Source of the DNA: an uncultured bacterium
GTDB lineage: Bacteria; Abyssobacteria; SURF-5; CBDUXP01
NCBI GenBank assembly: GCA_965371225.1
Contig: CBDUXP010000007.1
Span: 28,392 to 92,391, forward strand
Direction of reading: 5' to 3'
Length of the DNA stretch: 64,000 nt
Position 1 is the first letter of the stretch; every line of letters begins with the position of its first letter. The notes under the pieces were generated by a model. That model was not told where the DNA came from, did no database searches, and saw only the letters and a list, made by a program, of their open reading frames with translations. A program made the translations under genes and the position numbers. This document shows positions 1,606 through 45,507 of the stretch, piece after piece.

Positions 1606-2958
1606 ATGAGTTTTGACGCGGGAGTCATTGCGCCGCAACGGATTAGCAACCAGCCGATCCGCCACGACCTCTTGGCCAGGCTGCGCACCTACGCGGCGGC
1701 CGCCGTCATGTGTGCGCTGGCCGTAGCGCTCCTCTTCGCGATCCAAGCGTTCAGTACCCCCTATCCCCTGCCCGTGTCCCTGAGCCTCGTCACCGCCCTC
1801 TTCCTGCTCGTGGTCGTAGTGATCCATCTCTTCTTGTCCCGCCACCGGTGGTACGAGTGGCGCACGGACGGGCTGCTGTTCAAGACCGCCTTCGGCCGTA
1901 CGCGGCTCATTCCCTGGGAGCGGTTCCGCGACGTGCGTTATTTCGCCGGCGTGGCCGTGCCCTTTAGCGTCAAGATCGCCCGCCGCAGTCGGCCGGTCCT
2001 CCTAGGGGTGCACCATCCCGATCTGCCTGCCTGGACGAGCGAATGCATGCGGCGGATGCCCATCGACATGACCCGCGGCGGCCCCCTGACCACCGTGCGG
2101 CGGGAGTGGCTGTTCCTGGTGGGCGCGTGCAGCCTGGGCGCGGCCCTGCTGCTATCCCCCATCGGAATCCTCCGGGCGCTGTACGGCGCGCCGGGGTTCG
2201 CCGTGTGGCTCCTGGCCGTGGGCAGCATTGCGGGCACGCTCGCCGCCATCCTGCGTGAACCCTTGCGTTGGACCCGGATCGGCATCACGCTCGGGCGCGG
2301 CCGGAGGCAGCGGCATTACCGGTGGAACGAAATTCGCGGAGAGTGGCGCCGGACCTTCACCGGTGTGGCCGGCCTCTATCTGCACATCCCGAACGCGCCG
2401 ACGCTGCGGGTGCGACTGGGCGGGTGGGGCGCGCCGCGTTTCGTCGCGTGTCTCGACGCGCCGCCGCCGGCGCCCGCCCGGCAGAGCAGCATGAGCACGG
2501 TGAGCACCGGCGCTCTCTTCCCCTGCATGTTGGCCCTGTTCACCCTGATCGTCGGCATCCAGGTACATCAGAGTTCGCGCCTCTTCAGCGAACTCTCCTT
2601 CGACCGGGTGCGGGCCTTGGCCGGCGTCCAGACCCTCGCGAGGATTATCGAAGTGCGGCAGGATGACCGCGGCCTGCGCGTGCGGTACGCGTTCGAAGCC
2701 GACGGCCGCCGCCATCGCGGACAGGGCTGGCTCCTCACCACCGCCTTGACCAACCTCAAGCACCGGTCGTTCATCCCCGTGCGGTATTTCCCCGGGAAGC
2801 CCCGCGTGTCCGTGCCCGTCGGAGAGCCGACCTTGTACTACGCGTTGTACTACGCCCTCTTCGCGCTCTTCCACGCCATCTTCGTGATCCCGCTGATCGC
2901 CCTGTGGAGCGTCACCCCCGCGCCCCGCCCGTTCACCGTGCCCGGCTTCGCCGCGTAA
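1606..2958 (+). CDS. Hypothetical polytopic membrane protein (several TM segments; the C-terminal part resembles a DUF3592-like TM plus beta domain)
   Basis: 450-aa ORF with multiple long hydrophobic stretches (AAAAVMCALAVALLFAI, VTALFLLVVVVIHLF, LFPCMLALFTLIVGI, YYALFALFHAIFVIPLIALW). Nothing coding is evident on the opposite strand. An AT-richer promoter-like region lies immediately upstream. Confidence 0.55.
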   Translation: MSFDAGVIAPQRISNQPIRHDLLARLRTYAAAAVMCALAVALLFAIQAFSTPYPLPVSLSLVTALFLLVVVVIHLFLSRHRWYEWRTDGLLFKTAFGRTRLIPWERFRDVRYFAGVAVPFSVKIARRSRPVLLGVHHPDLPAWTSECMRRMPIDMTRGGPLTTVRREWLFLVGACSLGAALLLSPIGILRALYGAPGFAVWLLAVGSIAGTLAAILREPLRWTRIGITLGRGRRQRHYRWNEIRGEWRRTFTGVAGLYLHIPNAPTLRVRLGGWGAPRFVACLDAPPPAPARQSSMSTVSTGALFPCMLALFTLIVGIQVHQSSRLFSELSFDRVRALAGVQTLARIIEVRQDDRGLRVRYAFEADGRRHRGQGWLLTTALTNLKHRSFIPVRYFPGKPRVSVPVGEPTLYYALYYALFALFHAIFVIPLIALWSVTPAPRPFTVPGFAA

Positions 2959-3211
2959 ACGCCGCGGCGCCACCACCCGCAACTGCGGTGCTGACCGGGC
3001 TCGCGCGCTTCAACAAGCTCTTTGTCGTCTGGGTGGTGTTGTGCAGCGCCATCGGGGTCGTTGTGCCCGCGGCGTTTGCGTAGTTCCGCCCGTTCATCGT
3101 CCCCGGGCGATCAGTCGGCCTCCTGACCGGGCCCAAGCCGCGGGGGCGGGGCGGCATTGAGGCGCCCGGGGCCGGGTGATACACTTCTAACGCATAGCGT
3201 CACGAGCCTTT

Positions 3212-4456
3212 GTGACGCCATGTGAAACTGCTGTGATTCGCCGTATTCCACAGGCGGCTTGGTTGAGCGTTCTGCTCGCCATGGCGCCGATTCACCACCG
3301 GCCGGCCGGGGGGGAAGCCGCTGTCCCGCCCGCCCAGCCTGCCCCGCGTGCCGTGCCACCGGCCGTACGCGCGCAACTTCACGCGCCGGAACCCGCCGAG
3401 CGCATCCGGGCAGTACGCGGGTTGGCCCCCTACGGTCAAAATGCCGTCGAACCGCTGTTTGCCATGCTGACGGACCCCGAGCCCTCCGTCCGCTGGGCCG
3501 CGCTCGGCACCCTCAACAGCTTGCAACACGCCGACCTGGTCCCGCCCATCCTCGCCGCCCTCCCCAGCGCGGACGAGCGGATGCAGGTGCGCCTGTATTT
3601 CCTGCTCGCGCGGCATGCGGACCGCCGGACCTGGGACACGCTCGTGGCTGGCCTGGGACACACGGACAAGAACGTCCGGCAGGTCTGTGCGGACGGGCTG
3701 ACCCGCACCGCACAGCCCGGTGATGAAGCCGTGCTCGGGAAGGCGTTGGCGACGGCCTCCCCCGCCGTGGCGCTGGGGCTGGTCCAAGCCCTGGCACCGC
3801 TCGGTACGCCGGAGGCAGCCGCCGCCCTGGCGCCCCTGCTGCAGCACGAGGACGCCACGTACCGGCAGTACGGCGCGCAGGGGCTGGCCGAACTGGGCCG
3901 ACCGGAAGCGGTGGCGTACCTGACGCAGCATCTTCACGACTCGTCTGCCGAAGTGCGGTCGTGGGTGTACTACGGCATCAGCCAGCATGGCGACGGGAGC
4001 ACCTTCGACATCCTTCTGGCCGGCACCGCCGACCCGGATGCCTACATCCGCAAGGAAAGCGCTTGGGGCCTCGGTCGGCTCGCAGACGCGCGGGCCCTGT
4101 CCGCGCTGCAGGGCGCCCTGACAGACGAGGAACCTACGGTGCGCGGGAGCGCGGCCGAGGCGCTGGGGATGCTCAACCACCCGGCAGCACTGCCCGATCT
4201 GCAGCGTGCCGCCGCGGACCCCGACCCGACCGTCCGTTTGCTGGCCGCAGAATCCCTGCTCCGCCTGGGGGATGCGAGCGGGACTGCCGAACTGATCGAG
4301 AACCTGCGCCATGACAACCGGCACTTCCGCCGAGTCGCGTTACGCGGCCTGACGCTGTACAGCGGGCAAGCTTTCGGCGGCGATTACGACGCGTGGAAGG
4401 CGTGGTGGGCCGCGCAATCGGCCACCCCCGTCCCGCCGCCGGCAGGCCAGGAGTAG
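3212..4456 (+). CDS. HEAT-repeat (PBS-lyase-like) protein with an N-terminal signal-like segment
   Basis: Repeated ~30-aa units carry a D/E-P-x-x-x-V-R core (EPSVRWAALGTL, DKNVRQVCADGL, DAYIRKESAWGLGRL, EPTVRGSAAEALGML, DPTVRLLAAESLLRL). A hydrophobic N-terminus follows RRIPQAAWLSVLLAMAP. The stop lies 2 nt before the patatin start. Confidence 0.7.
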   Translation: MTPCETAVIRRIPQAAWLSVLLAMAPIHHRPAGGEAAVPPAQPAPRAVPPAVRAQLHAPEPAERIRAVRGLAPYGQNAVEPLFAMLTDPEPSVRWAALGTLNSLQHADLVPPILAALPSADERMQVRLYFLLARHADRRTWDTLVAGLGHTDKNVRQVCADGLTRTAQPGDEAVLGKALATASPAVALGLVQALAPLGTPEAAAALAPLLQHEDATYRQYGAQGLAELGRPEAVAYLTQHLHDSSAEVRSWVYYGISQHGDGSTFDILLAGTADPDAYIRKESAWGLGRLADARALSALQGALTDEEPTVRGSAAEALGMLNHPAALPDLQRAAADPDPTVRLLAAESLLRLGDASGTAELIENLRHDNRHFRRVALRGLTLYSGQAFGGDYDAWKAWWAAQSATPVPPPAGQE

Positions 4457-4458
4457 CG

Positions 4459-5943
4459 ATGGCGAAACGCACCCCGCTGCGCCCGCGGGTCTACATCGTC
4501 GGTGCCACGAAGCGACACGTTGGGGAGGTGCAGCGGATCTTCCGGGACCTCAAGCAGTCTCGCGGGCTGCATGTGGAAACGCAGACCTTCGTCGGATTCG
4601 ACCAACTCCGCCCGCACCTGGAACGCTACGTGAACCTCGTCGTGTTCAACTTCCGCGGCGTGGATCCGGCGCAATTCAAGGGGGCCTTGCGCGACCTCCG
4701 GACCGTGTACAGCGGCCGCATGGTCATCGTCAACGACGACCCCAGCGTCCACCCGTGCATCTGGGGGCGCTTCTACGGGATGAACTACCAGGTCGCGGAC
4801 CCGGCGGCCCTGAGCCCGTACATCGCCCGGACCCTGAGCCGGACGCCGCCGCGCGGGCGCACCGCGATCGTGTTCGCCGGCGGGGGCATTCTGGGCGGCT
4901 TCACCGAGGTGGGGGTCTACAACGCCCTCCACGACATGGGCCTGCGCGACTTCGACATGTACCTGGGCCTCAGCGCCGGCGCCCACGTGGCGGCCGTCGC
5001 CGCGCACCGGATTCCCCCCCGCACCATGATCGAACGGGGCGGGCTCGGGCTGCTGGATTTTTACAGCCCCAATGTGCGCGATGCCGTCAGCAAGAGTCTC
5101 TTCTTCCTGCCAAACCTCATTCAGGGCTCGCTGGAGTATCTTCGCAGTCCGTCCCCCGACCTCTTGTTTCTCCTCTCCAGTCTCTTTCCCAGTGCGGCGC
5201 TCACGGGCAAACGCATCTCACGGAGCCTCGAACGGGCAATCCGGCAAGCCGGGGGCACCAATAGCTTCAAGGACTTGCTCGACCGCGGCGTCGAACTGTA
5301 CGTGACCGCCATGGATCTGGACACCACGGAGCTGAGGGTGTTCGGGGCCGACGACGATGTCGACGTCCCGATTTCCCTGGCGGTCCGGGCGTCCGCCGCC
5401 CTGCCCCTGGCCTACCGCCCAGTGGAGATTGACGGCCGCCAGTACATCGACGGCGGCATCCACACCACCGCCCCGATCGACGTGGCCATCGACCACGGCG
5501 CCGACCTCATCATCTGCGTCAATCCGCTCGTGCCCTTCGTGGCCGACGAGCCGGGCACCATCCAGCGGCTCGGGGCCGTCGGGGTGGCCGAGCAGAGCTA
5601 CCGGACGGTGTTGCGCCAACGGTTGCAGAGCGACATTCAGTACTACCGGCTGGCGCATCCGCGGCGCCTCATCCTCTTGATCGAACCCGACCTGCGGAAC
5701 GCGGCGCTGTTCCACAATCCGCTCAACGCCAATCCGGACCTGATCGCCCGCGCGCTCGCGGAGGGTTACGATTCGGTCCGCCGCTATATGGAGCGGGACT
5801 GGGACTTCGTCGAACGCAGTTTCCTGTACCACGGCCGTCCCATTTCCCGCACGATCATGGAGCGCGTCAGCACCGCCCTGCGCCACTCGGAACTCTCGCA
5901 CGAAGCGCTGATGGACGTGTTCGCCGCGGAAGCCGAGGCCTAG
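4459..5943 (+). CDS. Patatin-like phospholipase with an N-terminal pseudo-receiver (CheY-fold-like, phospho-acceptor Asp absent) domain
   Basis: The three patatin motifs are intact: oxyanion loop FAGGGILGG, nucleophile elbow GLSAG, and the catalytic Asp in YIDGGI. The preceding ~140 aa have a receiver-like beta/alpha pattern (VYIVGA...NLVVFNFRG...RMVIVND) without the conserved acidic residues. The ATG at 4459 lies immediately after the HEAT gene stop. Confidence 0.8.
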   Translation: MAKRTPLRPRVYIVGATKRHVGEVQRIFRDLKQSRGLHVETQTFVGFDQLRPHLERYVNLVVFNFRGVDPAQFKGALRDLRTVYSGRMVIVNDDPSVHPCIWGRFYGMNYQVADPAALSPYIARTLSRTPPRGRTAIVFAGGGILGGFTEVGVYNALHDMGLRDFDMYLGLSAGAHVAAVAAHRIPPRTMIERGGLGLLDFYSPNVRDAVSKSLFFLPNLIQGSLEYLRSPSPDLLFLLSSLFPSAALTGKRISRSLERAIRQAGGTNSFKDLLDRGVELYVTAMDLDTTELRVFGADDDVDVPISLAVRASAALPLAYRPVEIDGRQYIDGGIHTTAPIDVAIDHGADLIICVNPLVPFVADEPGTIQRLGAVGVAEQSYRTVLRQRLQSDIQYYRLAHPRRLILLIEPDLRNAALFHNPLNANPDLIARALAEGYDSVRRYMERDWDFVERSFLYHGRPISRTIMERVSTALRHSELSHEALMDVFAAEAEA

Positions 5944-5977: not shown

Positions 5978-6006
5978 TTGACCGCCGCCGGGGGCCTGGC
6001 TATACT
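5978..6006 (+). promoter_or_regulatory. Sigma70-type promoter (TTGACC, 17-nt spacer, TATACT) for the downstream secreted-protein gene
   Basis: Near-consensus -35 and -10 hexamers with a 17-nt spacer, read directly from the sequence. An AGGTGG Shine-Dalgarno lies about 10 nt before the ATG at 6057. Confidence 0.45.
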
Positions 6007-6056: not shown

Positions 6057-6788
6057 ATGCCTAGACGAGCGACCAACACTTTGGGGCGCTGGACTACCTT
6101 CCTGATCCTCACGGTCGTCCTCCCCACACTGGCGGAAGCTGCGGACAGCGTGGCGCTCAAGGCCGGCCCGATCATCGAGGGCGAAATCACGGTCGAGAAC
6201 GAGCAGATCATCAAGATCCGCGTGAAGAACGGCCGGGTCATGCAGTTTCCGCGCGCGGTGATCGAAGCCGTCACGTATGGGCCGAACTCCACCGCGCCGA
6301 GCCAAGTGCAGCAGCGCGAGGATGATTCCAAGGCCGACCTGAAGGAAGCCCAGGAAACCGTCAAGCGGATCCGGAAGCGGCGCCGCCGCCGGCGGAAGCC
6401 GAAGGAGGAAGGGAAGATCGAAGAGACCGGCCAAGTCGCCGCCCAGGGCATCATGGCGGACGGGACGCTCATCATCCCCCCGCAGGGGACGCCGGAAGAA
6501 GACAAGTGGATTGAAGAGTTGCGAAACGGCAAGAACAAGATCGTCGCGTGCCGCACCTTGGCCGAGTTGCAATCCCTGATCGCGCTGCCCGACCTGATTA
6601 ACGCGCTCGATGCCGATGGCCCGATCCTTCGGCGAGAGGCCAACACCGCCCTAATGAAGATCACCCATCAAAACTTCCGCTTTGTTTACGACCAACGGAG
6701 TCGCAGCACCCGGGTCGAGGCGATCAAGCGCTGGCGCAAGTGGTACGAGGAGGCGAGCGGCAAGAAGGTGCCCTGGTCGCGCATGTAG
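6057..6788 (+). CDS. Hypothetical secreted protein with a Lys/Arg-rich low-complexity linker
   Basis: Signal peptide (WTTFLILTVVLPTLAEAAD), then a KRIRKRRRRRRKPKEEGK stretch. It has its own strong promoter and RBS. Confidence 0.5.
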   Translation: MPRRATNTLGRWTTFLILTVVLPTLAEAADSVALKAGPIIEGEITVENEQIIKIRVKNGRVMQFPRAVIEAVTYGPNSTAPSQVQQREDDSKADLKEAQETVKRIRKRRRRRRKPKEEGKIEETGQVAAQGIMADGTLIIPPQGTPEEDKWIEELRNGKNKIVACRTLAELQSLIALPDLINALDADGPILRREANTALMKITHQNFRFVYDQRSRSTRVEAIKRWRKWYEEASGKKVPWSRM

Positions 6789-6804: not shown

Positions 6805-8568
6805 CTAGCCGCTGGGGCCTGGTGCGGCGGATGCCCGCCGGCCCGCGCGCACCGCCACGACCAAGCTGCACAGCAGCGCGCTCGCGGCGACGCCCATGAA
6901 TTGCAAGAGCCCCACGAGCAGGACCGCGACGGCCGGGTCGCGCTGATCCCAAGGGTGGGGGTCTAGCCCGAAGCCCACTAAAAAGACGGCAGCGCCCGCC
7001 GTCGCCACCGCGGCCAGGCCGCCCGCCACGCTGGCAACCACGCTGCCGAACTTCGGCGCCGCCGCGGTCTGGCGGCGCGCAAGCCAACGGGCCGTGAGGT
7101 AGGCCGCTATCAGCCCCAGCGCGCCCTCGCCGAATCGCGGGAGGGCGAACGGGGCAAGCCCCCGACGGCCCGGGCCGCTCAGGCTGTACCCGTTTCCCCC
7201 GGCCAGGAACAGCCCTACGGGCACAAGGACCCCGACCGCGATACCGGCGATCAGCCAAACGGGCGGGTTCTTCGCGGGGGGCGCGCCCGCGCGCGCGGCC
7301 CGCCGGCGCAGGAGCCCCGAGAGAACCATGGCCCCGAGTCCCAGGCCGGTCGCCGCATAGAGCCGCGGCCGTAAGAACCGCTGGGCGGCGAGGGCCAAGT
7401 GCTCGTGCCACCGAAAGCGCAACGCAGAGGCCAGGTTGGCCGCTTCCGACCACGCCAGCTTCCACTGCTGCGCGCCCAGCGCCGCATCCACCAGGTCGGT
7501 CCGCAAACCCCGCGGCATCGGCGCATCCAACTGCGGATCGGCCAGACCCAGCCGGTCGAGGCGGAAGCGATACGCTTGCAACCGTTGCGCCACCGTATCG
7601 CGCCCGCGGCGCGCGCGAACTTCCGGCGCACAGTCCAGCGCGTCATACAGGGGCCAGCCTTCGTTGTGGGTCGGGATGGGTGTCCCCAGCAGCCACGCCA
7701 CGGTCGAGGCGAGGTCCCCCTGCTCCGCCTGACCCGCGGTACCTGGCCGAATGCCCGCGCCCGCTAACACGCAGGGCACAGTCGCCACGACCGGTTCTCC
7801 GCCCATGTGCCCGCCGCGGTCCAGGTGCCCGTGATCGGCGGTGACTACGAGCGTCTCGCGCGTGAAGTCCAGCGCCCGAGCAATCTCCCCAATGCGTTCC
7901 CCCGTCCGCCGGGCCATCTCCAGATACTCGGGGGACGCACCACCCGCCACGTGGCCGGCGCGGTCCACGATGTCAAAGTGCACCCAGATCAGATTCGGTG
8001 CGTCCGGTTGGGCCAACACTTCGAGCAGGCGGGGCAGCAGGACGTCATCGTCCGCGTAGCCCGGCGCGCTCGGCAGCGAATTCGGCGCATCCAGAAACTG
8101 TTCGAGCGCGTACGGGGAGCGCCACGTCACGACGTTGCCCGTGCGCAACCCTGCCTGATGCGCCGCAGTGTAGATACTGCCGAACGTCCGGTAAAAGCCG
8201 GGGCCGACCGCGGCCGCTCCGGTGTTGTTGAGCATGCCGATGGTGAGTTGCGGCGCGCCGGTGGCAATCACATGCGAGAGCGGGATGGAGGCGGTGGGCG
8301 GCGCCACGCTCAGCGTCCAGTCGGCACCCTGCTCCCGGAGGGTATTGAGCGACGCCATCGCTCGCGACGCGTCCACGCGCAAGCCGTCCACCACGCACAG
8401 CACCACCCGCTCCGTCAGCGGCTCCCCCGCCGGACCCCACGGTAGCGGCTCAGCGAACGGCGTGCGGTACAGCGTCGCGCGGGCGTTCAGTTGCGTGAGC
8501 AGCCCCGCGCCGCACACTCCCAACGCCGCAACCAGGAACAGGAGTCGCGCAGGCGTAAATCGGAACAT
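6805..8568 (-). CDS. Alkaline-phosphatase-superfamily enzyme (nucleotide pyrophosphatase/phosphodiesterase-like) with a C-terminal multi-TM anchor
   Basis: Metal-ligand motifs of the AP/NPP fold (VVDGLRVD near the N-terminus, VTADHGH later). The C-terminal ~200 aa are strongly hydrophobic. Confidence 0.6.
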   Translation of the reverse strand: MFRFTPARLLFLVAALGVCGAGLLTQLNARATLYRTPFAEPLPWGPAGEPLTERVVLCVVDGLRVDASRAMASLNTLREQGADWTLSVAPPTASIPLSHVIATGAPQLTIGMLNNTGAAAVGPGFYRTFGSIYTAAHQAGLRTGNVVTWRSPYALEQFLDAPNSLPSAPGYADDDVLLPRLLEVLAQPDAPNLIWVHFDIVDRAGHVAGGASPEYLEMARRTGERIGEIARALDFTRETLVVTADHGHLDRGGHMGGEPVVATVPCVLAGAGIRPGTAGQAEQGDLASTVAWLLGTPIPTHNEGWPLYDALDCAPEVRARRGRDTVAQRLQAYRFRLDRLGLADPQLDAPMPRGLRTDLVDAALGAQQWKLAWSEAANLASALRFRWHEHLALAAQRFLRPRLYAATGLGLGAMVLSGLLRRRAARAGAPPAKNPPVWLIAGIAVGVLVPVGLFLAGGNGYSLSGPGRRGLAPFALPRFGEGALGLIAAYLTARWLARRQTAAAPKFGSVVASVAGGLAAVATAGAAVFLVGFGLDPHPWDQRDPAVAVLLVGLLQFMGVAASALLCSLVVAVRAGRRASAAPGPSG

Positions 8569-8626: not shown

Positions 8627-10009
8627 CTACGGGACGAGCTGGTTCCCGTACAGACTCAACGAACCGTTCGACAGGCCGAGGACCACGTCGTTATCGGTAT
8701 CCGCATCGAAGTCGCCCGCGATAATCGCCGTGGGCGGCGCGGCGACCGCAAGCGTCGGCCCCGCCACGAACACCCCGGCGCCGTCATTCACGAAGAACCG
8801 CAACTCGTCCAGGGCCCCGGCCGTATCGCCAATCACCGCCAAGTCCTGCACCGCGGGCGCGGCATCGCTGAATGGCGTCGCAAGCAGGTCCTGCGGTTGC
8901 CCCGGCCCAAACCCGGTCGCCACCTGCGTGGCGGCGAGCAGAGTCCCAGGGGTAGCTGGATCGTTGATCCGGATTTCCAGGTTGCCGTCATCGCGCAGAA
9001 TCACGATATCGCTCAGGTTGTTGATGCCGTCGCCGTCAAAGTTGGCCACCGCGATGGACACTCCGGCCGATCCAATTGTGAACACTGAATCCGGCAGCGC
9101 CCCATTGGTCGTCAAGTTGGCATTCAGCCACACCTCGATCTGCCCCGCAGCCCCCGCATCGGTCAGCGCGATGACATCGACCAGGGCGTCCGCGTTGAAT
9201 ATGCCGAGGGCAACATCGATCACGTTGCCAGTCGCGGCCAGGCTGGCCGTCTCGGCCAAGAGACCCGCGCCGTTATTCAGCGAAACGGTCACACTGGTTC
9301 CGGTCTCGTCCGCGGTCACGAGGTCGACCAAGCCGACGTTCATGCCGTCTACATCAGCCAATATGACGCGCCGGGGTTGCCCGCCGCCTAAGGCATAGGT
9401 ACGGACACCCCCAATGCCGGAGAACTCCCCGATGTCACCCCCGGAATTATCCGAATCGTTCAAGACCGCTTCCAAGTGCGGTCCCGCCCCGGTCACCCCA
9501 TCCGCGACGACTAAATCCAGCAGGGCATCGCCGTCGATCTCTCCAATCGCAACGCCGCCTGGCAGCTTTGCGGTCGCGGCGATATTAGCGACGTTTCCAG
9601 GTTGCGCCAGCGTGCTCGCGTAGGGCCCCGCCGTGACCGCAGGATTCATGAAGGGGAAGGCGCCCGGCAAGGCCGTGACGTCAAACAACTGCGTCAGCAC
9701 CGGGGTCGCGGTGTTGGTGATTGCAACGAAGTCCACGGACGCCCCGGCTCCGGGATCGAGAATGCCCGCGGCCAACGTTCGAATCGTCGCGGCGCCGGCA
9801 ACCGCCTGGTTCGTGTCGAAAAGGAATGCAATGATGCTGGCCGCCGGGGGCGGGACTCCGCCGCCTCCCCCACCGCCGCCGCCGATGCCGCCGATGGGGC
9901 TGTTCCCACTGTTCCCGCCCCCCACGTCACAGGCGGCAAGCGCGAGGCACAGGGCAAGCGGGAGCGCGCGACGCGTACCCCGGCGCGTCCAGGCGTGTAA
10001 AACTGTCAT
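8627..10009 (-). CDS. FG-GAP/VCBS-repeat lipoprotein
   Basis: Lipobox LALCLALAAC, a Gly/Pro linker, and repeated GDxDGDGxxDLV-type FG-GAP units (GEIDGDALLDLVVADG, ADVDGMNVGLVDLV, ANFDGDGINNLSDIVIL, GDFDADTDNDVVLG). The start was set at the internal ATG preceding the signal peptide. Confidence 0.65.
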   Translation of the reverse strand: MTVLHAWTRRGTRRALPLALCLALAACDVGGGNSGNSPIGGIGGGGGGGGGVPPPAASIIAFLFDTNQAVAGAATIRTLAAGILDPGAGASVDFVAITNTATPVLTQLFDVTALPGAFPFMNPAVTAGPYASTLAQPGNVANIAATAKLPGGVAIGEIDGDALLDLVVADGVTGAGPHLEAVLNDSDNSGGDIGEFSGIGGVRTYALGGGQPRRVILADVDGMNVGLVDLVTADETGTSVTVSLNNGAGLLAETASLAATGNVIDVALGIFNADALVDVIALTDAGAAGQIEVWLNANLTTNGALPDSVFTIGSAGVSIAVANFDGDGINNLSDIVILRDDGNLEIRINDPATPGTLLAATQVATGFGPGQPQDLLATPFSDAAPAVQDLAVIGDTAGALDELRFFVNDGAGVFVAGPTLAVAAPPTAIIAGDFDADTDNDVVLGLSNGSLSLYGNQLVP

Positions 10010-10164
10010 AGGAGGGCGCCCTCCCGGCGGGCACCAGCAGGTACTTCGGCAAACTCGATCAGAGAATTCTAGCACGCCGGCGACGTAAGTGTCGAGCCAG
10101 CTTAGAGTTGCGTCGCTTGATTCGCAGCCGGAGGCGGTGGGGCCAGGTGCAGGCCCAAGCGGAG

Positions 10165-11703: not shown

Positions 11704-12866
11704 TCCGCCAGCTTGGCCGGCGCGCCACTAGTGAAGGTACCGGTGCGCTCCAGCCGGTCGAGGGCGCGCCGGCACCAGCCCTCGGCCGCCGCAAAGTCCT
11801 TTCGCCGGTGCTCGTACAGTTTGGCCAGTTCCTCCAAGGCGCTGAAGGCGAGCGACCACTCGGCCGAGAGGAGCTGCTGCCAGAGCTGCTCGGCGGCGGG
11901 CCAGTCCGCCCGGCGTTTCGCGAGCCGGGCCAACCGCCACCGCGCGTCTTCGGCCGTTTCGGCCACGGGCGACTCGGCGGCGCGCGCGTAGCACGCGGCA
12001 GCCTGCGCCCGGGCGTCCGCCTGGTCCGCCGCCTCCAACGTGCGGCCGACGTGCACCAGGTCCTCCAGTTCGACCGCCGGTGCGTGCAAGGGATCCCGGC
12101 CGACGGCGCTGACGCAAACCGCCAGGGCCGCCAGAGACAAGATGTCGGTCGCGTTGTGTTCGAGAATGGGGTCGAGCAAGGCGGCATTCTGCTCGCGCAG
12201 GGCACGGAAATACTGGCCGGGGATCTGCGCCCCGGGAAGATCATCCTGTCTCCCGAGGCCAAACAGGTGCCGCTCGACCGTGCCCAGGCTGGCGTCGCGC
12301 AGACGCGGCCGCCACACGCGCCGCACCGTATGCAACAGGTCCACGTGCGGCGTCGCCTCCAGCGGCCAGTGGCGCCGGTGCATGACGAACCGATCGCGCA
12401 ACAGCGGAACATCGAAGCTCTTGCCGTTGTACGTGACCAACACGGTGCACTGTTGCAGCCGCGCATCCACCGCGGCGAGCATCGCGGGCTCTTCGGGGTA
12501 GTCGCGCATGACATACTGCCGGACCACGAAGTGGTCTCCTTCAAACGCGCCGAGGCCAATCAAAAACGCCACGGTCCCGGCGCCGCCGTTCAGGCCGGTG
12601 GTTTCCGTGTCGAGGAAGACCCACCCGTCGACCGGATACCGCGCGAGTCCCGCGGTCTTCGCCAGAGAGCCGAGCGCGCGGGCATCCACGCGGTTGGGAT
12701 CCAACACCACATCGCCATGCACCTGATCCGCGGCGCAGTGCACCTCGCGGAGGTCGAATGCCGTAACGGTACCCGTCGCGCGCCGGTGCGGCGCCACCGG
12801 ACGCGGACGATCCGGCAGCGCACGGCCCTGGGGATCCAGGTGCCGCAGCCGCTCGCGCAGGCTCAT
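11628..12866 (-). CDS. mrfB: DEDD-type (RNase H-like) 3'-5' exonuclease, YprB/MrfB-like
   Basis: Exo I motif FLDTETTGL, with Exo II/III-like context following (YNGKSFDVPLL, HNATD). The ATG at 12866 overlaps the upstream helicase stop in an ATGA arrangement. The longer 518-aa ORF N-terminus lies antisense inside the helicase gene and is not believed. Confidence 0.7.
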   Translation of the reverse strand: MSLRERLRHLDPQGRALPDRPRPVAPHRRATGTVTAFDLREVHCAADQVHGDVVLDPNRVDARALGSLAKTAGLARYPVDGWVFLDTETTGLNGGAGTVAFLIGLGAFEGDHFVVRQYVMRDYPEEPAMLAAVDARLQQCTVLVTYNGKSFDVPLLRDRFVMHRRHWPLEATPHVDLLHTVRRVWRPRLRDASLGTVERHLFGLGRQDDLPGAQIPGQYFRALREQNAALLDPILEHNATDILSLAALAVCVSAVGRDPLHAPAVELEDLVHVGRTLEAADQADARAQAAACYARAAESPVAETAEDARWRLARLAKRRADWPAAEQLWQQLLSAEWSLAFSALEELAKLYEHRRKDFAAAEGWCRRALDRLERTGTFTSGAPAKLAEWEARFAHRLARVTARRARARRRSQ

Positions 12867-15178
12867 GCCGGGACGGGCGCGGCAGGGCGGGCGGGCGCGC
12901 GGGCGGCGCCACAGTCCGCGAGCACCAGATCGAGCAAGCGAAGGGCGGCGGCCTTGCCCTCCTCCCCCACCTCGAGCGGCGGGCCGACACACGAGGGACA
13001 TCCGCACTCGCACGCACAGCCCGCAATCAACTCGCGCGCCCCGGCGAAGACCATCTCCTGCAAGCGGAAGAGTTTGTCGCTGTAGCCCACGCCGCCGGGA
13101 TAGTTGTCGTACACGTAGACCGTGGCGCGCTCGCTGAACGGCGCACGCACCATCGGCACGGCGCGCACGTCGCGGGGATCGCACATGAGGTAAATCGAGG
13201 CCACTTGCCCGAGCACGTGGGCGACGGCTTGCAGCGCCCCGCCGATGATTTGCGGCCCGACGCCGATGTCTTCGAGCGCCTCCGGCGTAAAGTCGCGCCA
13301 GAACGCCGTCGTGTGCAGGTGCGATTCCGGCAGGTAGATGCGGCCGACCCCCAGGTTCTCGTGCGTGCGGAACTTTACTTTCTTGTACGCGACCGGGAGG
13401 GTGGACACCGCGACTTCGCCGCAGCCGACGCTGCCGCGCGGGGCCGGCGCGTCCTGGAACACCGCGAGCACCTTGATCGCCGTTTTCGATTCCGCGTCCG
13501 TGTAGTAGTCCACCTCCACGGGTTTCACATACGCCTTCTTGTCGTCGTAGTCGAGGCGCTCGACGGAGTAGGTGGCGCCTTCGTGAATGTAGATCGCCCC
13601 TTCGTACACCTCGAGCGTAGCGGCCACGTAATCCACTTCGCCGATGACGCGGTCACCGTTCTGGCAGTCGACGATCACCACGTTCTCCGGCGACGCGCTG
13701 CGCAGGCTCACGTCTTCCGCGGGATACGCGTCGGCCGCCCAATACCACCGGCCCTCCACGTGCCGCACCAGCTCCAACTCCTCCAGGTACGCGAGCATCT
13801 CGCCCATCTCGTCGACGCCGAAGCGCTCCCCGTCCTCGAAGGGCAGCTCGAACAGGGCGCACTTGAGGTGGCCCAGCAAGAGGATGAGGTTGTTCGGATC
13901 CACCACGCCGTGTTCCGGCGGCTGATCGAAGAAGTAGTCCGGATGGTGCATCAGGAACTGGTCCACCGGCGCGCTCGAGCCCACGAGAATCGCGGCGCTC
14001 ACGCTGCTGCGCCGCCCCGCCCGGCCCGCCTGCTGCCAGGTGCTCGCAATGCTGCCGGGATAACCCGCCATCAGACAGGCGTCCAGCGCGCCGATGTCGA
14101 TGCCCAACTCCAAGGCGTTCGTACTGACCACGCACCGGATGCTCCCATCCCGCAGCCCCGCTTCGATCGCCCGCCGCTCGTTGGGAAGGTACCCGCCGCG
14201 GTAGCCCGTGATCCGCCCGGCTTTCTGCCGCCGGGAGCGGGCCTGCTCCTTCAGGTACGTGGTCAACAGTTCCACCCGCAGCCGGCTCCGCCCGAAGACG
14301 ATCAGCTGCGTGCCCTTGTCCATCAGGCGGCTGGCCAGCCGCTGCGTCTCATTAATGACCGAGCGGCGAATGCCCAGCGCCGCGTCCACCACGGGGGGGT
14401 TGTACAGGATGATGTGTTTTTCGCCGCGCGGCGCTCCGTTGTCGTCGATGAGTTCGACGTCCTCCCCGAGCAGTTTCGTGGCGAGTTCGCGCGGATTCGC
14501 AATCGTGGCGCTGCAGCAGATGAACTGCGGCTGCGTGCCGTAGAACGCGCACAGGCGCCGCAGGCGGCGCACGAGATTGGCGAAGTGGGAGCCGAACACC
14601 CCGCGGTACTGGTGCACTTCGTCGATCACGACGTAGCGGAGGTTCTCGAACAACTGTGTCCACTTCGTGTGGTGCGGCAGGATGCCGGTGTGCAGCATGT
14701 CCGGGTTCGTGAGCACGATGTGCCCCGAGCGGCGAATGGCCCGGCGCGCGTCGGCCGGCGTGTCCCCGTCGAACGTGTGCACGCGCAACGGCGTGGGCAA
14801 ACGGTCGCGCAGGCCGCGCAAGGTGTTCAGCTGATCGTTGGCCAGGGCCTTGGTCGGGAAGACGTACAACGCGCGCGCGGCCGGGTCCCGGAGCACCCGC
14901 TGCAACACCGGCAGGTTGTAGCACAAGGTTTTCCCAGACGCGGTGGGCGTCACGATGACCACGTGCCGGCCGCGGCCGACGGCGTCCCACGCGGCAAGCT
15001 GGTGGCTGTACAGAGAGCGGATCCCGTCAGCGGCCAGGGCCGCCTGCAAGCGGGGATCGAGCGTGGGCGGGAAGGGCGCGGTGACCGCCGCGCGCGCCGG
15101 TATGGTGCGCCAGGCCGCCACATTGGCCTGCACCCGCGGATCCGCACGCAACTGGTCGAGGGCTTGGGCGAGGTTCAT
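12863..15178 (-). CDS. mrfA: DEAD/DEAH-box superfamily-2 helicase with a C-terminal DUF1998 zinc-finger domain, YprA/MrfA-like
   Basis: Walker A TPTASGKT, DEVH box (VVIDEVH) and motif VI QQAGRAGRR. The C-terminal 4-Cys cluster CACECGCPSC is typical of DUF1998. Confidence 0.8.
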   Translation of the reverse strand: MNLAQALDQLRADPRVQANVAAWRTIPARAAVTAPFPPTLDPRLQAALAADGIRSLYSHQLAAWDAVGRGRHVVIVTPTASGKTLCYNLPVLQRVLRDPAARALYVFPTKALANDQLNTLRGLRDRLPTPLRVHTFDGDTPADARRAIRRSGHIVLTNPDMLHTGILPHHTKWTQLFENLRYVVIDEVHQYRGVFGSHFANLVRRLRRLCAFYGTQPQFICCSATIANPRELATKLLGEDVELIDDNGAPRGEKHIILYNPPVVDAALGIRRSVINETQRLASRLMDKGTQLIVFGRSRLRVELLTTYLKEQARSRRQKAGRITGYRGGYLPNERRAIEAGLRDGSIRCVVSTNALELGIDIGALDACLMAGYPGSIASTWQQAGRAGRRSSVSAAILVGSSAPVDQFLMHHPDYFFDQPPEHGVVDPNNLILLLGHLKCALFELPFEDGERFGVDEMGEMLAYLEELELVRHVEGRWYWAADAYPAEDVSLRSASPENVVIVDCQNGDRVIGEVDYVAATLEVYEGAIYIHEGATYSVERLDYDDKKAYVKPVEVDYYTDAESKTAIKVLAVFQDAPAPRGSVGCGEVAVSTLPVAYKKVKFRTHENLGVGRIYLPESHLHTTAFWRDFTPEALEDIGVGPQIIGGALQAVAHVLGQVASIYLMCDPRDVRAVPMVRAPFSERATVYVYDNYPGGVGYSDKLFRLQEMVFAGARELIAGCACECGCPSCVGPPLEVGEEGKAAALRLLDLVLADCGAARAPARPAAPVPA

Positions 15179-40373: not shown

Positions 40374-40499
40374 CCCGGTTGCGCGAGGCGGGGGCGTTTG
40401 TTAACATGCCACCGTTAGAGTCTATTGCCGGTCACCGACCATGGAGTTGGGCGCGGGGGACGCGCCCGGGGGTCCGGGGCGCGTCGGGAAAGGCAGCAG

Positions 40500-40943
40500 A
40501 TGGCGAAGATCCTGATCGCTGACGATGAGGGCGATCTCCTCGAAGTCATGCGGGCAACGCTGGAGGCCACCGGGCATAAGGTGGGGACCGCGCGCGACGG
40601 CGTCATCGCGCGCAAGATGCTCGCGAAATTCCCGTTCGACTGTGCCATTCTGGATGTGGTGATGCCCCGGCTCAATGGGGTAGCACTGCTGAAGATGATC
40701 CGGAAGAGCCGCTCCCGCCAGAATCTGCCGGTCTGCCTGATGACCGCGAATCCACAAGAGCGCGATGCCCTGCTGAAAAGTGAAGGCTTGGCCGCCGATG
40801 TCCTCCTCATCAAGCCCTTCAATACCATGGATCTCATCGAGGCCGTGACGGCGATGACCGAGGCGGGCACAAGTCAGCCCGATGAGCAGGGCCGGCGCCT
40901 GAAAACCACCCTCCCCGGCCGGCACCGGACCACGAGCATCTGA
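40500..40943 (+). CDS. Single-domain response regulator (CheY-like receiver)
   Basis: Starts MAKILIADDEGDLLEV. The phospho-acceptor is in CAILDVVMPRLNG and a conserved Lys sits in LLIKPF. There is no output domain. This is the first gene of a co-directional cluster. Confidence 0.75.
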   Translation: MAKILIADDEGDLLEVMRATLEATGHKVGTARDGVIARKMLAKFPFDCAILDVVMPRLNGVALLKMIRKSRSRQNLPVCLMTANPQERDALLKSEGLAADVLLIKPFNTMDLIEAVTAMTEAGTSQPDEQGRRLKTTLPGRHRTTSI

Positions 40944-41037
40944 GCCCGGGCCGCCGGCGACCCTGGTGCCCCACCGCCGAGGGTGCGGTAGAATTAGAAT
41001 AGAATACGGCTGCTCCGGCAGCGTTTCGCTGACCCCT

Positions 41038-41514
41038 ATGGCACAGACTTGGGCTGAACACGAATCCTGCGCCCGGTGCGGCGCCTCCCTGGGCGGGGAG
41101 TTCCGCACAAATCACCTGGGGGTCCGGTTCTGCCAAACCTGCTATGAGGATAGCGTGGTCCCCCGCGCAGCGGAGCGGAGCCCGGACCCCGTCCTGGAAC
41201 AGGTGTGCAATCGCTGCCGGGGCTCCCTGATCAATGGCTACCACGCAAATTACATGGGCGTCCTCTTCTGCACCGCGTGTTTCGAGCGGACGCACACGCC
41301 GGAAGGCCGGCCACGCGCGGACTGGGCAGAACGCGAGGCGCTGAGCGTGGCCCAACAGCCCCGCGACCGGGATGAGGACGGGGACGCGCCTGCCGGCGAG
41401 GATGAAGAGGGCATCTATCTTCACGACGTCTTTTTCGTCACGACGATTCTCGCCCTGGTGATGTACGCGGTGTCGCGCTTCGGCGGCGCGCTGCTAGCCC
41501 TCGGCGGCTACTAG
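41038..41514 (+). CDS. Tandem zinc-ribbon protein with an acidic linker and a C-terminal TM anchor
   Basis: Two C-x2-C-x17-C-x2-C modules (CARCGASLGGEFRTNHLGVRFCQTCY and CNRCRGSLINGYHANYMGVLFCTACF), a Glu/Asp-rich stretch, and a C-terminal hydrophobic helix. There is a 4-nt gap to the archease gene. Confidence 0.45.
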   Translation: MAQTWAEHESCARCGASLGGEFRTNHLGVRFCQTCYEDSVVPRAAERSPDPVLEQVCNRCRGSLINGYHANYMGVLFCTACFERTHTPEGRPRADWAEREALSVAQQPRDRDEDGDAPAGEDEEGIYLHDVFFVTTILALVMYAVSRFGGALLALGGY

Positions 41515-41518
41515 CCGC

Positions 41519-41947
41519 GTGCCCGCCGCAACGTTCGAGCGGATCGACCACACGGCCGACGTCGGCTTGCGTCTCCTGGCCCCCACCGAAGCCGACCTGT
41601 TCGTCACGGCGGTCGCGGGCCTGCACGCACTCTGGGGGCTTCCCGCGCCCGAGCCGCCGGCGGGCGCGCCGACGGAGCCACTGGAAGTGCATGGGGCGGA
41701 CATCGAAAGCCTCCTGGTCGCCTGGCTGAACGAATTGATCTTTCAAGCGACGGCGGCGGGGCGAGTGGCCGCGAGCGTGCAGGAGCCCTGCCTGGCGGAC
41801 GGCCGGTTCCGGGCGGAGGTGGCCTGGCAGCCCGTACAGTGGGACACCTCGGTGGACGGGGCGGACATCAAGGCGGCCACCTACCACACCGTACACGTGA
41901 CCGAAACGGCGGAAGGCTTCACCACGACGATCATCTTCGACGTGTGA
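41519..41947 (+). CDS. Archease (RtcB activator)
   Basis: N-terminal FERIDHTADVG motif and an archease-length protein immediately upstream of rtcB. Confidence 0.8.
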   Translation: MPAATFERIDHTADVGLRLLAPTEADLFVTAVAGLHALWGLPAPEPPAGAPTEPLEVHGADIESLLVAWLNELIFQATAAGRVAASVQEPCLADGRFRAEVAWQPVQWDTSVDGADIKAATYHTVHVTETAEGFTTTIIFDV

Positions 41948-41963
41948 GCCGGCCAGGCGGGCA

Positions 41964-43496: not shown

Positions 43497-43498
43497 GC

Positions 43499-44983
43499 AT
43501 GCCCACACCGTCTCCCTCCCCCACGCGGGTCATGGTCATTGCCGACACGCAGGACGGACTGAACGCCGCCGCGCAGGCGCTTCGCGACTGGGCCACAGAA
43601 GCCGGCCAGAACCTGGAGCTGCTCGCGGTCCACGGGCTGGGGGGCGCGCAGGCGCACCTGCATCAGTACATCAACCTCGTCGTCCTCAACTACGTGGGCC
43701 TCCCCGCCGCCCGCGCCATCCCCACCCTGGCCGGACTGCGGGACGCCTACTGCGGGCCCGCGATCGTGGTCAGCGACGACGCCACGGTGGATTCCTGCAC
43801 GTGGGGCCGGCGATACAGCGCGGATTACCATGCGGATGCGCTGGCCGCGCTGGGCGGATACGTGGCCAAAGTGCTCGAGCGGGACCGGCCGCAGGGAAAG
43901 ACGGCGCTCGTGTTCGCCGGTGGCGGCATCCTCGGCGGGTTCAACGAGGCGGGCAGCTTGAAAGCCCTCTACGACTTCGGCATTCGCGAGGCCGACATGT
44001 ACATCGGCCTCAGTGCCGGCTCGTGGGTGGCGGCCATGGCGGCGAACGATGTCACGCCCGAACTGATGATCGAACACCCCCATCTGCACCCGCGCGACTT
44101 CTACCAGTTGAACGGCCGGGACATACTGCGCCAGCTCACCATGTTGGGGCCCAACGTGGTCCGGAGCCTCGCCCAGCGCGTCCTGCATCCGGACAGCGAT
44201 TGGCTCTTCCAACTCTCCAGTATCTTCACCACCTCGCCTCTGACCGGGGACCGGCTGCGGCAGCGGTTCTGCGAGGTGCTCGGCCAGGAGGGGGGCACCA
44301 ACGATTTCGGCGAACTCCGGGAACGCGGGCGGGAACTGTACATCATGGCCGTGGAACTGGATTCCGCCGAACGTCGGGTGTTCGGCGAGGGCGACGACAT
44401 CCACGTCCCCATCTCGGAGGCCGTCAGCGCCTCGTCGGCGCTCCCGATGTTCTACCGGCCGGTGCATATCGACGGCCGCGACTACGTGGACGGTGGGCTC
44501 GCGCGCTCCGCCTGCATCGACACCGCGATTGACAACGGCGCCGACCTCATCGTGTGTCTCAATCCCCTGGTGCCCTACACGGGTGGGGATCCGGGGCACA
44601 TCAAAGCGTTGGGCCTGGCGGGCATCGCCGAGCAGAGCGTGCGCGCGCTCATCCACTCCCGCCTGCACGCGACGGTGGAACGGTTCCGGCAGATTCACCC
44701 GCACGTGACGATCCTCCTCATCGAACCCGATACGAACGATCCCGCCATGTTCCACAACCCCCTGCGCGGGAGCGAGAATATGATTCAACTGGCCGCGCTG
44801 GAGGGATTCAAGTCGACCAAGGCGTTCCTGGAAGAACGGTCGGAATTCATCCAGCATATCTTCGCCAGCCACGGGCGCACGCTAGCCGTCCCGGCCGCGG
44901 ACGATGCGGGAGCCGGAGACGTGCCGTTCGACCACATGCCCGAGACCTGGGTGGACGATCCGGACGTTCAGGAACTGGCGTGA
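43499..44983 (+). CDS. Patatin-like phospholipase, paralog of the 4459..5943 gene, with an N-terminal pseudo-receiver domain
   Basis: Patatin motifs FAGGGILGG, GLSAG and YVDGGL. The N-terminal receiver-like pattern (VMVIAD...NLVVLNYVG...AIVVSDD) is co-linear with the first paralog. The start is 2 nt after the rtcB stop. Confidence 0.8.
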   Translation: MPTPSPSPTRVMVIADTQDGLNAAAQALRDWATEAGQNLELLAVHGLGGAQAHLHQYINLVVLNYVGLPAARAIPTLAGLRDAYCGPAIVVSDDATVDSCTWGRRYSADYHADALAALGGYVAKVLERDRPQGKTALVFAGGGILGGFNEAGSLKALYDFGIREADMYIGLSAGSWVAAMAANDVTPELMIEHPHLHPRDFYQLNGRDILRQLTMLGPNVVRSLAQRVLHPDSDWLFQLSSIFTTSPLTGDRLRQRFCEVLGQEGGTNDFGELRERGRELYIMAVELDSAERRVFGEGDDIHVPISEAVSASSALPMFYRPVHIDGRDYVDGGLARSACIDTAIDNGADLIVCLNPLVPYTGGDPGHIKALGLAGIAEQSVRALIHSRLHATVERFRQIHPHVTILLIEPDTNDPAMFHNPLRGSENMIQLAALEGFKSTKAFLEERSEFIQHIFASHGRTLAVPAADDAGAGDVPFDHMPETWVDDPDVQELA

Positions 44984-45507
44984 TGCCCCTGGAACGGGCG
45001 TTTTGCGGCCGGCGCCTGGAACTCCTGCAAGGGGACATCACCGAGCAAGCGACCGACGCCATCGTCAACGCGGCGAATAACCATCTCGTCCTCGGTGCGG
45101 GCGTGGCCGGGGCGATTCGGACGAAGGGCGGGCCGAGCATTCAGGAGGAGTGCACCCGTCTGGGCCCCATCCCGATAGGGGAAGCAGCCGTGACCGGGGC
45201 CGGGAACCTTGCGGCCCGCCACGTGATTCATGCGGCAAGCATGGGCGATGAACCGGTCAGCGCCAGGTCGTTGCGGGACAGCACGCACAACAGCTTGAAA
45301 CGCGCGAGGGAACTCGGGTTGACCTCTATCAGCTTTCCCGCCATCGGGACGGGGATCGGTGGCTTCTCGCTCCACGAAGCCGCGACGATCATGCTCGGCA
45401 CCGCCAAGGAGCACTTGGAAGCCGACACGACGCTGGACCTCGTCCGCTTCGTTCTGTGGAGCGAGGCCGATTACCAGGCGTTTGAGACGATCCTTAACCG
45501 GCTCTAG
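44983..45507 (+). CDS. Macro-domain protein (MacroD/YmdB-type ADP-ribose/O-acetyl-ADP-ribose hydrolase)
   Basis: Motifs VNAANNHLVLGAGVAGAI and AIGTGIGGF. The ATG overlaps the patatin stop in TGATG. Confidence 0.85.
   Translation: MPLERAFCGRRLELLQGDITEQATDAIVNAANNHLVLGAGVAGAIRTKGGPSIQEECTRLGPIPIGEAAVTGAGNLAARHVIHAASMGDEPVSARSLRDSTHNSLKRARELGLTSISFPAIGTGIGGFSLHEAATIMLGTAKEHLEADTTLDLVRFVLWSEADYQAFETILNRL

Follow-up and report, generated by a model that had tools for sequence, protein, structure and literature searches.

We analysed a 64-kb stretch of DNA (hereafter the window) from contig CBDUXP010000007.1 of an uncultured bacterium of the Abyssobacteria, in which a gene for a HEAT-repeat protein is followed directly by a gene for a patatin-like hydrolase with a receiver-like N-terminal domain. 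The two genes form an operon with a conserved promoter and a conserved palindromic operator, and the operator motif is associated, at related patatin genes of other phyla, with genes for PhaR-type regulators. The data led us, tentatively, to a composite reading of the locus as a PhaR-type-controlled HEAT-patatin operon for carbon-storage turnover, and not as an effector with its chaperone. The promoter and operator were absent from the initial annotation of this DNA and give the operon a regulatory context.

The operon structure and the conservation of the pair can be stated with high confidence. Both open reading frames (ORFs) and the spacing between them, with the HEAT stop codon 2 nt before the patatin ATG, read as initially annotated. 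The DNA at the junction is CAGGAG-TAG-CG-ATG, the Shine-Dalgarno (SD) sequence AGGAG lying 5 nt upstream of the patatin start, and neither a promoter-like nor a terminator-like site was found there in a generic promoter scan of the window. Five distinct loci of this type (pat1) were compared, namely the window, L001/L002, L169, L085 and L086, with patatin identities of 66-81%. A HEAT gene of ~400-424 codons was located directly 5' of the patatin gene in all five, with gaps of +2, -4, +2, +2 and -4 nt, and the HEAT orthologs of the other four loci were 48-63% identical to that of the window. The pair was thus conserved in relatives, as the initial annotation had anticipated, despite differing flanks: a gene for an SBF bile-acid/sodium symporter is inserted on the 5' side in L085 and L169, and one for a GMC oxidoreductase on the 3' side in L085 and L086.

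A common promoter and operator were found in the five orthologous upstream regions, which share TTGnGG, a 17-nt spacer, TGnTAnAnT, 3 nt and then TAACGCnnnGCGTCA, whatever gene lies 5'. The promoter agrees with the consensus at 8 of 12 positions, which puts it below the threshold of the generic scan; it was accordingly missed there, and the only find of that scan was a site before the downstream gene. The palindrome was invariant at the same position in all five pat1-clade loci. No second match to its sequence, exact or relaxed (T.ACGC...GCGT.A), was found in the window, for which base composition gives a chance expectation of ~0.007. Searches allowing two mismatches returned matches at chance level, and only the exact or palindrome-constrained pattern is informative.

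The same 15-mer was present in ~20 loci of Acidobacteriota, ~1.2 kb 5' of a patatin relative, usually paired around TTGACA and immediately before a gene whose product starts ...IRRYGNRKLY. These products matched Pfam PHB_acc_N, the DNA-binding domain of PhaR, with 77-97 bits (cut-off 25). A PHB_acc_N protein was encoded in 52 of the 171 loci with patatin relatives, and in 50 of the 52 its gene was the direct 5' neighbour in the same orientation and in many cases overlapped the start of the patatin gene; these loci belong to Acidobacteriota, Chloroflexota, Dormibacterota and Proteobacteria. The motif T.ACGC...GCGT.A was found at the phaR promoter in 29 of the 52, typically as a pair around the TTGACA -35 element, with the flanking palindromes reading T[AG]ACGC-RNY-GCGT[CT]A. 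Altogether 62 instances were counted in 1.84 Mb, compared with the few expected by chance (as estimated for a palindrome of 10 bases). At the central triplet, left unconstrained by the pattern, 42 of 61 instances read R-N-Y, so that the core is CGCRNYGCG, a subset of YGCRNYGCR. The latter is the PhaR core of Sinorhizobium meliloti, where it was defined and verified by electrophoretic mobility shift assay (PMC12542648). In that species two PhaR sites flank the -35 element of the phasin promoters (phaP1/2), and the PhaR-repressed polyhydroxybutyrate (PHB) depolymerase gene SMa1961 carries one site in the interval from the -10 element to the transcription start site (PMC12542648). The motif described here is of the same core class, and both layouts recur, the paired one at phaR promoters and the single one at the promoter of the HEAT-patatin operon. 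Among the 119 loci without an adjacent phaR, the motif was found 5' of the patatin in eight: the five HEAT-patatin loci, L089, L145 and L166. Its presence at HEAT-less patatins and at phaR-patatin cassettes indicates that it tracks the patatin and not HEAT. The operator is, on this sequence evidence, likely to be of the PhaR type.

The patatin matched Pfam Patatin (PF01734) with an E-value of 3.6e-25 and 89.7 bits (cut-off 27.7) over residues 137-344, and in an alignment of 33 family members S172 of GxSxG, D331-Gly and the glycine loop GGGxLGGF were invariant; judged from these residues it looks like a catalytically intact, active serine hydrolase. The full-length AlphaFold2 model (pLDDT 82, pTM 0.76) adopted the alpha/beta patatin fold, and its Foldseek matches were PlpD (2e-14), CapV, CapE, VipD and ExoU. 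Sequence comparison reached only PlpD among these, and the Arg of the PlpD loop GAARG aligned with the invariant G146. The glycines of the loop are thus present, and the basic Arg/Lys of the phospholipase GGxR/KG loop is absent, and a substrate other than a phospholipid is therefore possible. The PNPLA-family lipases that act on neutral lipid in mammals are likewise not known to have a basic residue in this loop. With the curated profiles RssA, CBASS lipase and VpdC the patatin scored far below the cut-offs, and the catalytic part gave no match to plasmids by tblastn. For the catalytic and C-terminal part the closest relatives, at 31-39% identity, are the patatins of the phaR-patatin cassettes. 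These share the Arg-less glycine loop and the operator with the window patatin; they differ in having no receiver-like N-domain and no HEAT gene, and the regulator gene occupies the position of HEAT.

A search of 5.8 billion proteins recovered ~33 full-length relatives of ~495 aa, below which there was a sharp drop to patatins of ~418 aa that cover residues ~130-470 only and are without the receiver-like N-domain. Neighbour-joining resolved four clades: pat1 (the first copy of the window and three relatives), pat2 (the second copy and four relatives), c (with metagenome-assembled genomes of Planctomycetota) and d (large; Poribacteria and Abyssobacteria). The second copy, which matched Pfam Patatin at 2.8e-21, had been described initially as a co-linear paralog, and this was borne out by BLASTP, with 204/463 identities (44%) from residue 1, no gaps, an E-value of 1e-141 and the same domain order. 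The N-domains alone (first 134 residues) were 33% identical and are homologous. Pfam also confirmed the partners given for the second copy, RtcB and macro, and added archease. A macro gene was found 3' of the patatin in all five pat2 loci (with an overlap of -4 nt in four of them and of -1 in the fifth) and RtcB 5' of it wherever the contig extends that far. HEAT is fixed with pat1 and macro with pat2, each in five of five loci, so the picture of two differently partnered copies stood. Both paralogs occur in the same samples; the duplication is hence an old one, and the two arrangements are stable. Beside the clade-c and clade-d patatins no HEAT, RtcB, archease or macro gene was found. A hidden Markov model built from the HEAT orthologs detected no adjacent HEAT protein at ~165 other patatin-relative loci either, and the HEAT-patatin pairing is therefore lineage-specific.

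The N-terminal domain is, with high confidence in the model, a receiver fold without a conserved phospho-acceptor, as its initial description as a pseudo-receiver implied. The isolated domain was predicted by AlphaFold2 with a pLDDT of 90 as five beta-alpha repeats with CheY-like topology. The end of beta-3 is N64 in the window and N, D, A, V, Y, H or T across the family (assigned by secondary-structure order, not by superposition); beta-1 is followed by G-A-T in place of an acidic pair, and no conserved Lys follows beta-5. No match to Response_reg (PF00072) was obtained even at E <= 1, and scans of Pfam, NCBIfam and PADLOC yielded no family for the domain, generic HEAT and patatin matches for the two proteins, and no assignment to a defence system. 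Y57, R81, Y84, G86, D94 and W102-G103-R104 were invariant among the 33 family members and identical in the clades with HEAT, with RtcB/macro and with neither partner. They can therefore not be what "specifies context", the role that the initial annotation had given to the partners, and an intramolecular or self-association function is more likely for them than partner recognition. The domain was also considered as a module shared with other effectors, a candidate that was rejected when a profile search of 1.84 billion representatives returned only this family, fragments and repeat artefacts. Confined as it is to one patatin family, the domain is not a shuffled module, and the initial picture of a modular effector family is right only in part.

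Searches of the HEAT protein with PF13646, PF02985 and PF03130 revealed tandem repeats, with HEAT_2 at 5.7e-64 (212.8 bits, 6 stretches), HEAT at 2.6e-27 (92.7 bits) and HEAT_PBS at 8e-17 (60.2 bits), all above cut-offs. The named HEAT families remained below theirs (NblB 71.5 bits vs 300, CpcF 48.6 vs 220, CpcE 48 vs 330), as did the DVU0298 profile (38.7 bits vs 75). This HEAT subfamily is limited to the lineage of the window, the next best database match below the orthologs being 30% identical. Three start codons are candidates: GTG 3212, which opens the longest ORF, GTG 3233 and ATG 3281, the start of the public gene call (391 aa). GTG 3233, which is in frame, shows conservation of the DNA across the window, L169 and L002, and a start at ATG 3281 would remove a conserved hydrophobic N-terminus; in L001 the gene was called at 332 aa only. 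The start is most likely GTG 3233 and not 3212. From there the protein begins MIRRIPQAAWLSVLLAMA, and its N-terminal ~18-25 residues are a putative Sec-type signal peptide. The signal-like N-terminus noted initially was present in all five orthologs, each with 1-2 Arg, a hydrophobic core of ~11-15 residues, AxA and then a Pro/Ala-rich linker, as judged by eye; the best 11-residue Kyte-Doolittle means were 1.75-2.36 and the AxA motifs AMA, AHA, ALA, ALA and ARA. The patatin N-terminus, MAKRTPLRPRVYIVG, has no hydrophobic segment and no export signal, and the first strand of the receiver fold starts at residue 10. Export of the HEAT protein by Sec is likely from this pattern, and since the pattern is missing from the patatin the two proteins would probably lie on opposite sides of the membrane. 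Alternatively, the hydrophobic N-terminus may anchor the HEAT protein to the membrane or to a granule surface.

These findings bear on a competing explanation, close to the initial annotation, in which a HEAT scaffold or chaperone in the cytosol would bind the pseudo-receiver and direct or restrain the patatin, with RtcB/macro as its equivalent in the paralog. Placement on opposite membrane sides would argue against a cytosolic adaptor or chaperone. The 391-aa gene call, which yields a HEAT protein lacking its hydrophobic N-terminus, favours one; against it, all five orthologs share the n-region, the hydrophobic core and AxA behind a conserved start, and the patatin carries no export signal. 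Receiver folds commonly make protein contacts via their alpha4-beta5-alpha5 face. D94 and W102-G103-R104 lie in this part of the N-domain, and the tight coupling kept in five of five loci and the conserved clade-specific partners would also fit a physical complex; the same residues are nevertheless identical in clades without HEAT or RtcB/macro, which speaks against their reading a partner. We consider the cytosolic scaffold or chaperone unlikely.

In the composite reading, the operon would be a self-contained bicistronic unit with a sigma-70-type extended -10 promoter, a single PhaR-type operator, the HEAT gene and the coupled gene for a cytoplasmic patatin. On the simplest account, a PhaR-family repressor encoded elsewhere in the genome would sit on the operator until an accumulating hydrophobic storage polymer, in polyhydroxyalkanoate (PHA) granules or a similar depot, titrates it and the operon is transcribed. 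The patatin would then hydrolyse esters of the storage polyester, of granule surface lipids or of neutral lipid; action on a storage polyester or neutral lipid, proposed by analogy, is rather unlikely when taken as a claim in itself. The pseudo-receiver would act as a built-in regulatory or oligomerisation module and so provide a second, post-translational layer of control, and the HEAT protein would be a co-regulated partner on the periplasmic side and not a cytosolic chaperone. As to its origin, an ancestral operator-phaR-patatin cassette may have given rise to a family that gained the receiver-like domain and then duplicated; in one copy HEAT would have replaced phaR behind the operator, and the other would have entered an RtcB RNA-repair operon.

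Several observations weigh against this reading and keep it tentative. The assignment of the operator to PhaR is an association combined with resemblance to an alphaproteobacterial motif, and the outer bases differ, being CGC/GCG with TRA/TYA flanks here and TGC/GCA with TTG/CAA flanks in S. meliloti PhaR sites. The central triplet of the window operator is ATA (R-N-R), which departs from the R-N-Y pattern. A relaxed motif search was at background level 5' of pat2, clade d, L003 and L006; the motif is thus missing from pat2, from clade d and from two of the three distinct loci of clade c, the third, L089, having a PhaR-box-like motif ~110 nt 5' of its patatin. No PhaR-type gene was found in the window or in the examined flanks of the orthologous loci. 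Genes for PHA synthesis or phasins were likewise not found in the window, and none for PHA synthase, phasin or other PHA functions beside the sampled phaR-patatin pairs. The regulators of these pairs matched PHB_acc_N only and not the PHB_acc domain, so their ligand may not be PHA. With respect to HEAT, a Pro after AMA, as in the window protein, disfavours cleavage by signal peptidase I, the public gene call from ATG 3281 omits the putative signal peptide, and it is not obvious what a HEAT protein outside the cytoplasm would do in granule metabolism. All five HEAT-patatin loci, finally, come from one lineage, so that part of the pair conservation is inherited synteny.

The last point can be carried further, to inherited synteny without any shared function, with a palindrome that regulates HEAT or binds another regulator and is uninformative on the patatin. 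The five loci also share the gene for an upstream membrane protein and, in part, the downstream gene; HEAT_2 proteins are abundant in such genomes (one in L003 lies 5 kb from the patatin, unlinked), and none stands beside the patatin at the ~165 other loci. Rearrangements have nonetheless occurred directly on either side of the pair and never within it, and the junction has stayed at +2 or -4 nt with the SD inside HEAT and no promoter-like or terminator-like site. The same operator, moreover, precedes the HEAT-less patatins of L089, L145 and L166 and the phaR-patatin cassettes, and we regard synteny as an improbable explanation of the whole, on a par with the cytosolic chaperone.

A conflict system, with a membrane-destroying patatin and an exported HEAT immunity protein or with receiver-triggered abortive infection, is very unlikely, for although CapV and CapE are among the closest solved structures, PADLOC phospholipase-effector profiles match weakly (E 1e-8), exported immunity proteins beside lipase toxins are known for type VI systems and the sister paralog has RtcB and a macro domain as neighbours, both known from RNA-damage conflicts, the NCBIfam CBASS_lipase score was 15.7 bits (cut-off 200), no cyclase/CD-NTase, secretion-system or defence gene was found nearby in a housekeeping neighbourhood, the patatin has no secretion or delivery domain, and the operator ties it to a metabolic regulator.

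Features of the HEAT-patatin operon, its paralog and related loci (positions in the window unless a locus is named)
Feature	Position	Strand	Details
Promoter	3157..3185	+	-35 TTGAGG 3157-3162; 17-nt spacer; extended -10 TG-n-TACACT 3177-3185
Palindromic operator TAACGCATAGCGTCA, PhaR-box-like	3188..3202	.	3 nt after -10, over the expected transcription start
HEAT-repeat protein ORF	3212..4456	+	414 aa as opened at 3212
HEAT-repeat gene, conserved start	3233..4456	+	GTG 3233, 407 aa; C-terminal motif DAWxxWW conserved
HEAT/patatin junction	4449..4461	+	SD AGGAG 4449-4453 within HEAT gene, TAG 4454-4456, 2 nt, ATG 4459
Patatin ORF	4459..5943	+	494 aa
Pseudo-receiver N-domain (predicted)	4459..4860	+	residues 1-134, (beta-alpha)5 fold
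Patatin catalytic domain and C-terminal helical region	4861..5943	+	Pfam Patatin
Gly-rich loop GGGILGG	4879-4899	+	residues 141-147
Nucleophile elbow G170-L-S172-A-G174	4972-4974	+	Ser codon
Catalytic D331-G-G	5449-5451	+	Asp codon
Upstream multi-pass membrane protein	1606..2958	+	450 aa, no Pfam family
Downstream gene	6057..6788	+	243 aa, signal peptide, weak HEAT_2 match, W..W tail
Paralogous pseudo-receiver patatin	43499..44983	+	archease-RtcB-patatin-macro operon; no PhaR-box-like motif
Clade-d tandem upstream genes, L008	1629-2033, 2778-3257
Clade-d tandem upstream genes, L010	5975-6397, 7015-7551
phaR and Arg-less patatin, L023	6760-7419 and 7965-9158		patatin ~400-450 aa; among L016-L084
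phaR and Arg-less patatin, L040	7332-7895 and 7896-9239		patatin ~400-450 aa; among L016-L084
phaR and Arg-less patatin, L017	7454-8083 and 8058-9302

The membrane protein encoded 5' of the pair was found there in all five pat1-clade loci (tblastn identity 43-65% in L001/2, L169, L085 and L086), separated from the pair by the SBF transporter gene in two of them, and gave no family match in Pfam or NCBIfam. On the 3' side, the downstream gene has its own promoter-like site (5978-6006, generic promoter scan), and homologs of its 243-aa product are encoded near the pair, in synteny, in L001/2 and L086. The N-terminus of this product resembles the Leptospira LA_0442/LA_0875 domain (NCBIfam 37.7 bits, under the cut-off of 43); a Lys/Arg/Glu-rich stretch was also noted, and the W..W tail resembles the DAWxxWW end of the HEAT protein. 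Further downstream, three genes were annotated on the minus strand. That at 6805-8568 encodes 587 aa with an N-terminal domain of the type-I phosphodiesterase/alkaline-phosphatase superfamily and a hydrophobic C-terminal half; an ortholog matches Pfam Phosphodiest, and the gene is convergent with the operon only in the window and L001/2. The second (8627-10075) encodes 482 aa that start with a signal-like segment and include ~12 Gly in a row and FG-GAP-like repeats, and the third (12863-15178) an MrfA-like DEAD-box DNA-repair helicase with a C-terminal Zn-binding MZB domain and an HRQ1-type winged helix, unrelated to the HEAT-patatin pair. The surroundings of the operon are otherwise ordinary chromosomal genes (a cysteine synthase fragment, an MsrP-like molybdoenzyme, D-Ala-D-Ala carboxypeptidase, LpxC, AcrAB-type efflux/AcrB and MoaE). 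No defence or secretion genes were found around the operon, PADLOC reported nothing specific, and an Rfam scan of the window gave zero matches.

The other receiver-patatins have neighbours of their own. The operon of the second copy spans 40425-45507 of the window and encodes a response regulator, a 182-aa protein rich in Cys whose C-terminus is a hydrophobic tail, archease, RtcB, the patatin and macro; no description of a lipase-type enzyme within such an RNA-repair operon was found in the searchable literature. In clade d (L008, L009, L010, L011, L014, L015 and L090) one or two tandem genes lie 5' of the patatin and encode a ~178-aa signal-peptide protein without a Pfam match, and a family-2 glycosyltransferase gene lies 3' in four loci. 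Small ORFs 5' of the clade-d patatins were considered as genes and rejected, being not conserved. In clade c (L089 5712-7335, L003 8001-11328) the gene after the receiver-patatin encodes ~590 aa that include a Methyltransf_28-like domain.

Few unassigned enzymes of bacterial genomes are commoner than the patatin-like hydrolases, which are usually annotated only as "RssA/NTE family". What is known here is the patatin-fold hydrolase and the type of the PhaR regulator; what is new is the regulatory domain, a previously undescribed and structurally clear pseudo-receiver that defines a rare patatin family, and its lineage-specific partners, which differ between two conserved operons. In the searchable literature we found no paper on a bacterial phaR-patatin cassette, a HEAT-patatin operon, a receiver-patatin fusion or an RtcB-patatin-macro operon; the papers on PhaZh1 and on Methylorubrum extorquens cited below were the only directly relevant ones. 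Through the putative PhaR-type operator, several dozen relatives without the receiver, from at least four phyla, would also be tied to a regulator of carbon-storage granules. Should this link be true, a large uncharacterised patatin subfamily would gain a physiological context, with candidate PHA-mobilising enzymes in phyla from which none has been described; should it fail, the HEAT-patatin pair would be a lineage-specific curiosity. A broader proposal is doubtful, namely that Arg-less patatins form a widespread class of hydrolases, unrecognised so far, that PhaR controls and that serve to mobilise or remodel storage polyester or lipid inside the cell. Were it true, the class would comprise the phaR-patatin cassettes of four phyla and the receiver-fused forms of Planctomycetota-like, Poribacteria and Abyssobacteria lineages, a dead receiver domain would have been acquired as an extra switch in the lineage of the window, and the HEAT and RtcB/macro couplings would link storage-lipid turnover to envelope processes and to RNA-damage/ADP-ribose signalling, respectively.

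Among known systems, the nearest in the proposed role is PhaZh1 of Haloferax mediterranei, a patatin-like, granule-associated PHA depolymerase (PMC4823750); in Methylorubrum extorquens, mutation of phaR leads to up-regulation of a homolog (PMC6520949). PhaZh1 is a patatin-fold serine hydrolase of storage-polyester metabolism and is likened to the window patatin by description; the haloarchaeal PhaR is a regulator type unrelated to the PHB_acc_N regulators described here. We know of no receiver-like domain or HEAT partner of PhaZh1. In E. coli, rssA-rssB combines a patatin-like gene with one for a receiver-domain protein in an operon, where the two proteins are separate and RssB possesses a genuine acceptor Asp; with the NCBIfam RssA profile the window patatin scored 32 bits (cut-off 272). 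Other phosphorylation-independent receivers are the N-domains of CpaE/TadZ and the receiver-like subunit of mycobacterial complex I, which are 9-15% identical to the N-domain of the patatin; the latter differs from them in its set of invariant residues and in its fusion to a lipase-type enzyme. CapV/CapE, PlpD, VipD and ExoU share the patatin fold and the Ser-Asp dyad with the window patatin (Foldseek E 2e-14 to 1e-9; 14-22% identity) and are activated by cyclic nucleotides, an outer-membrane barrel, or host ubiquitin/Rab5, whereas the window patatin carries a receiver-like domain that those systems lack.

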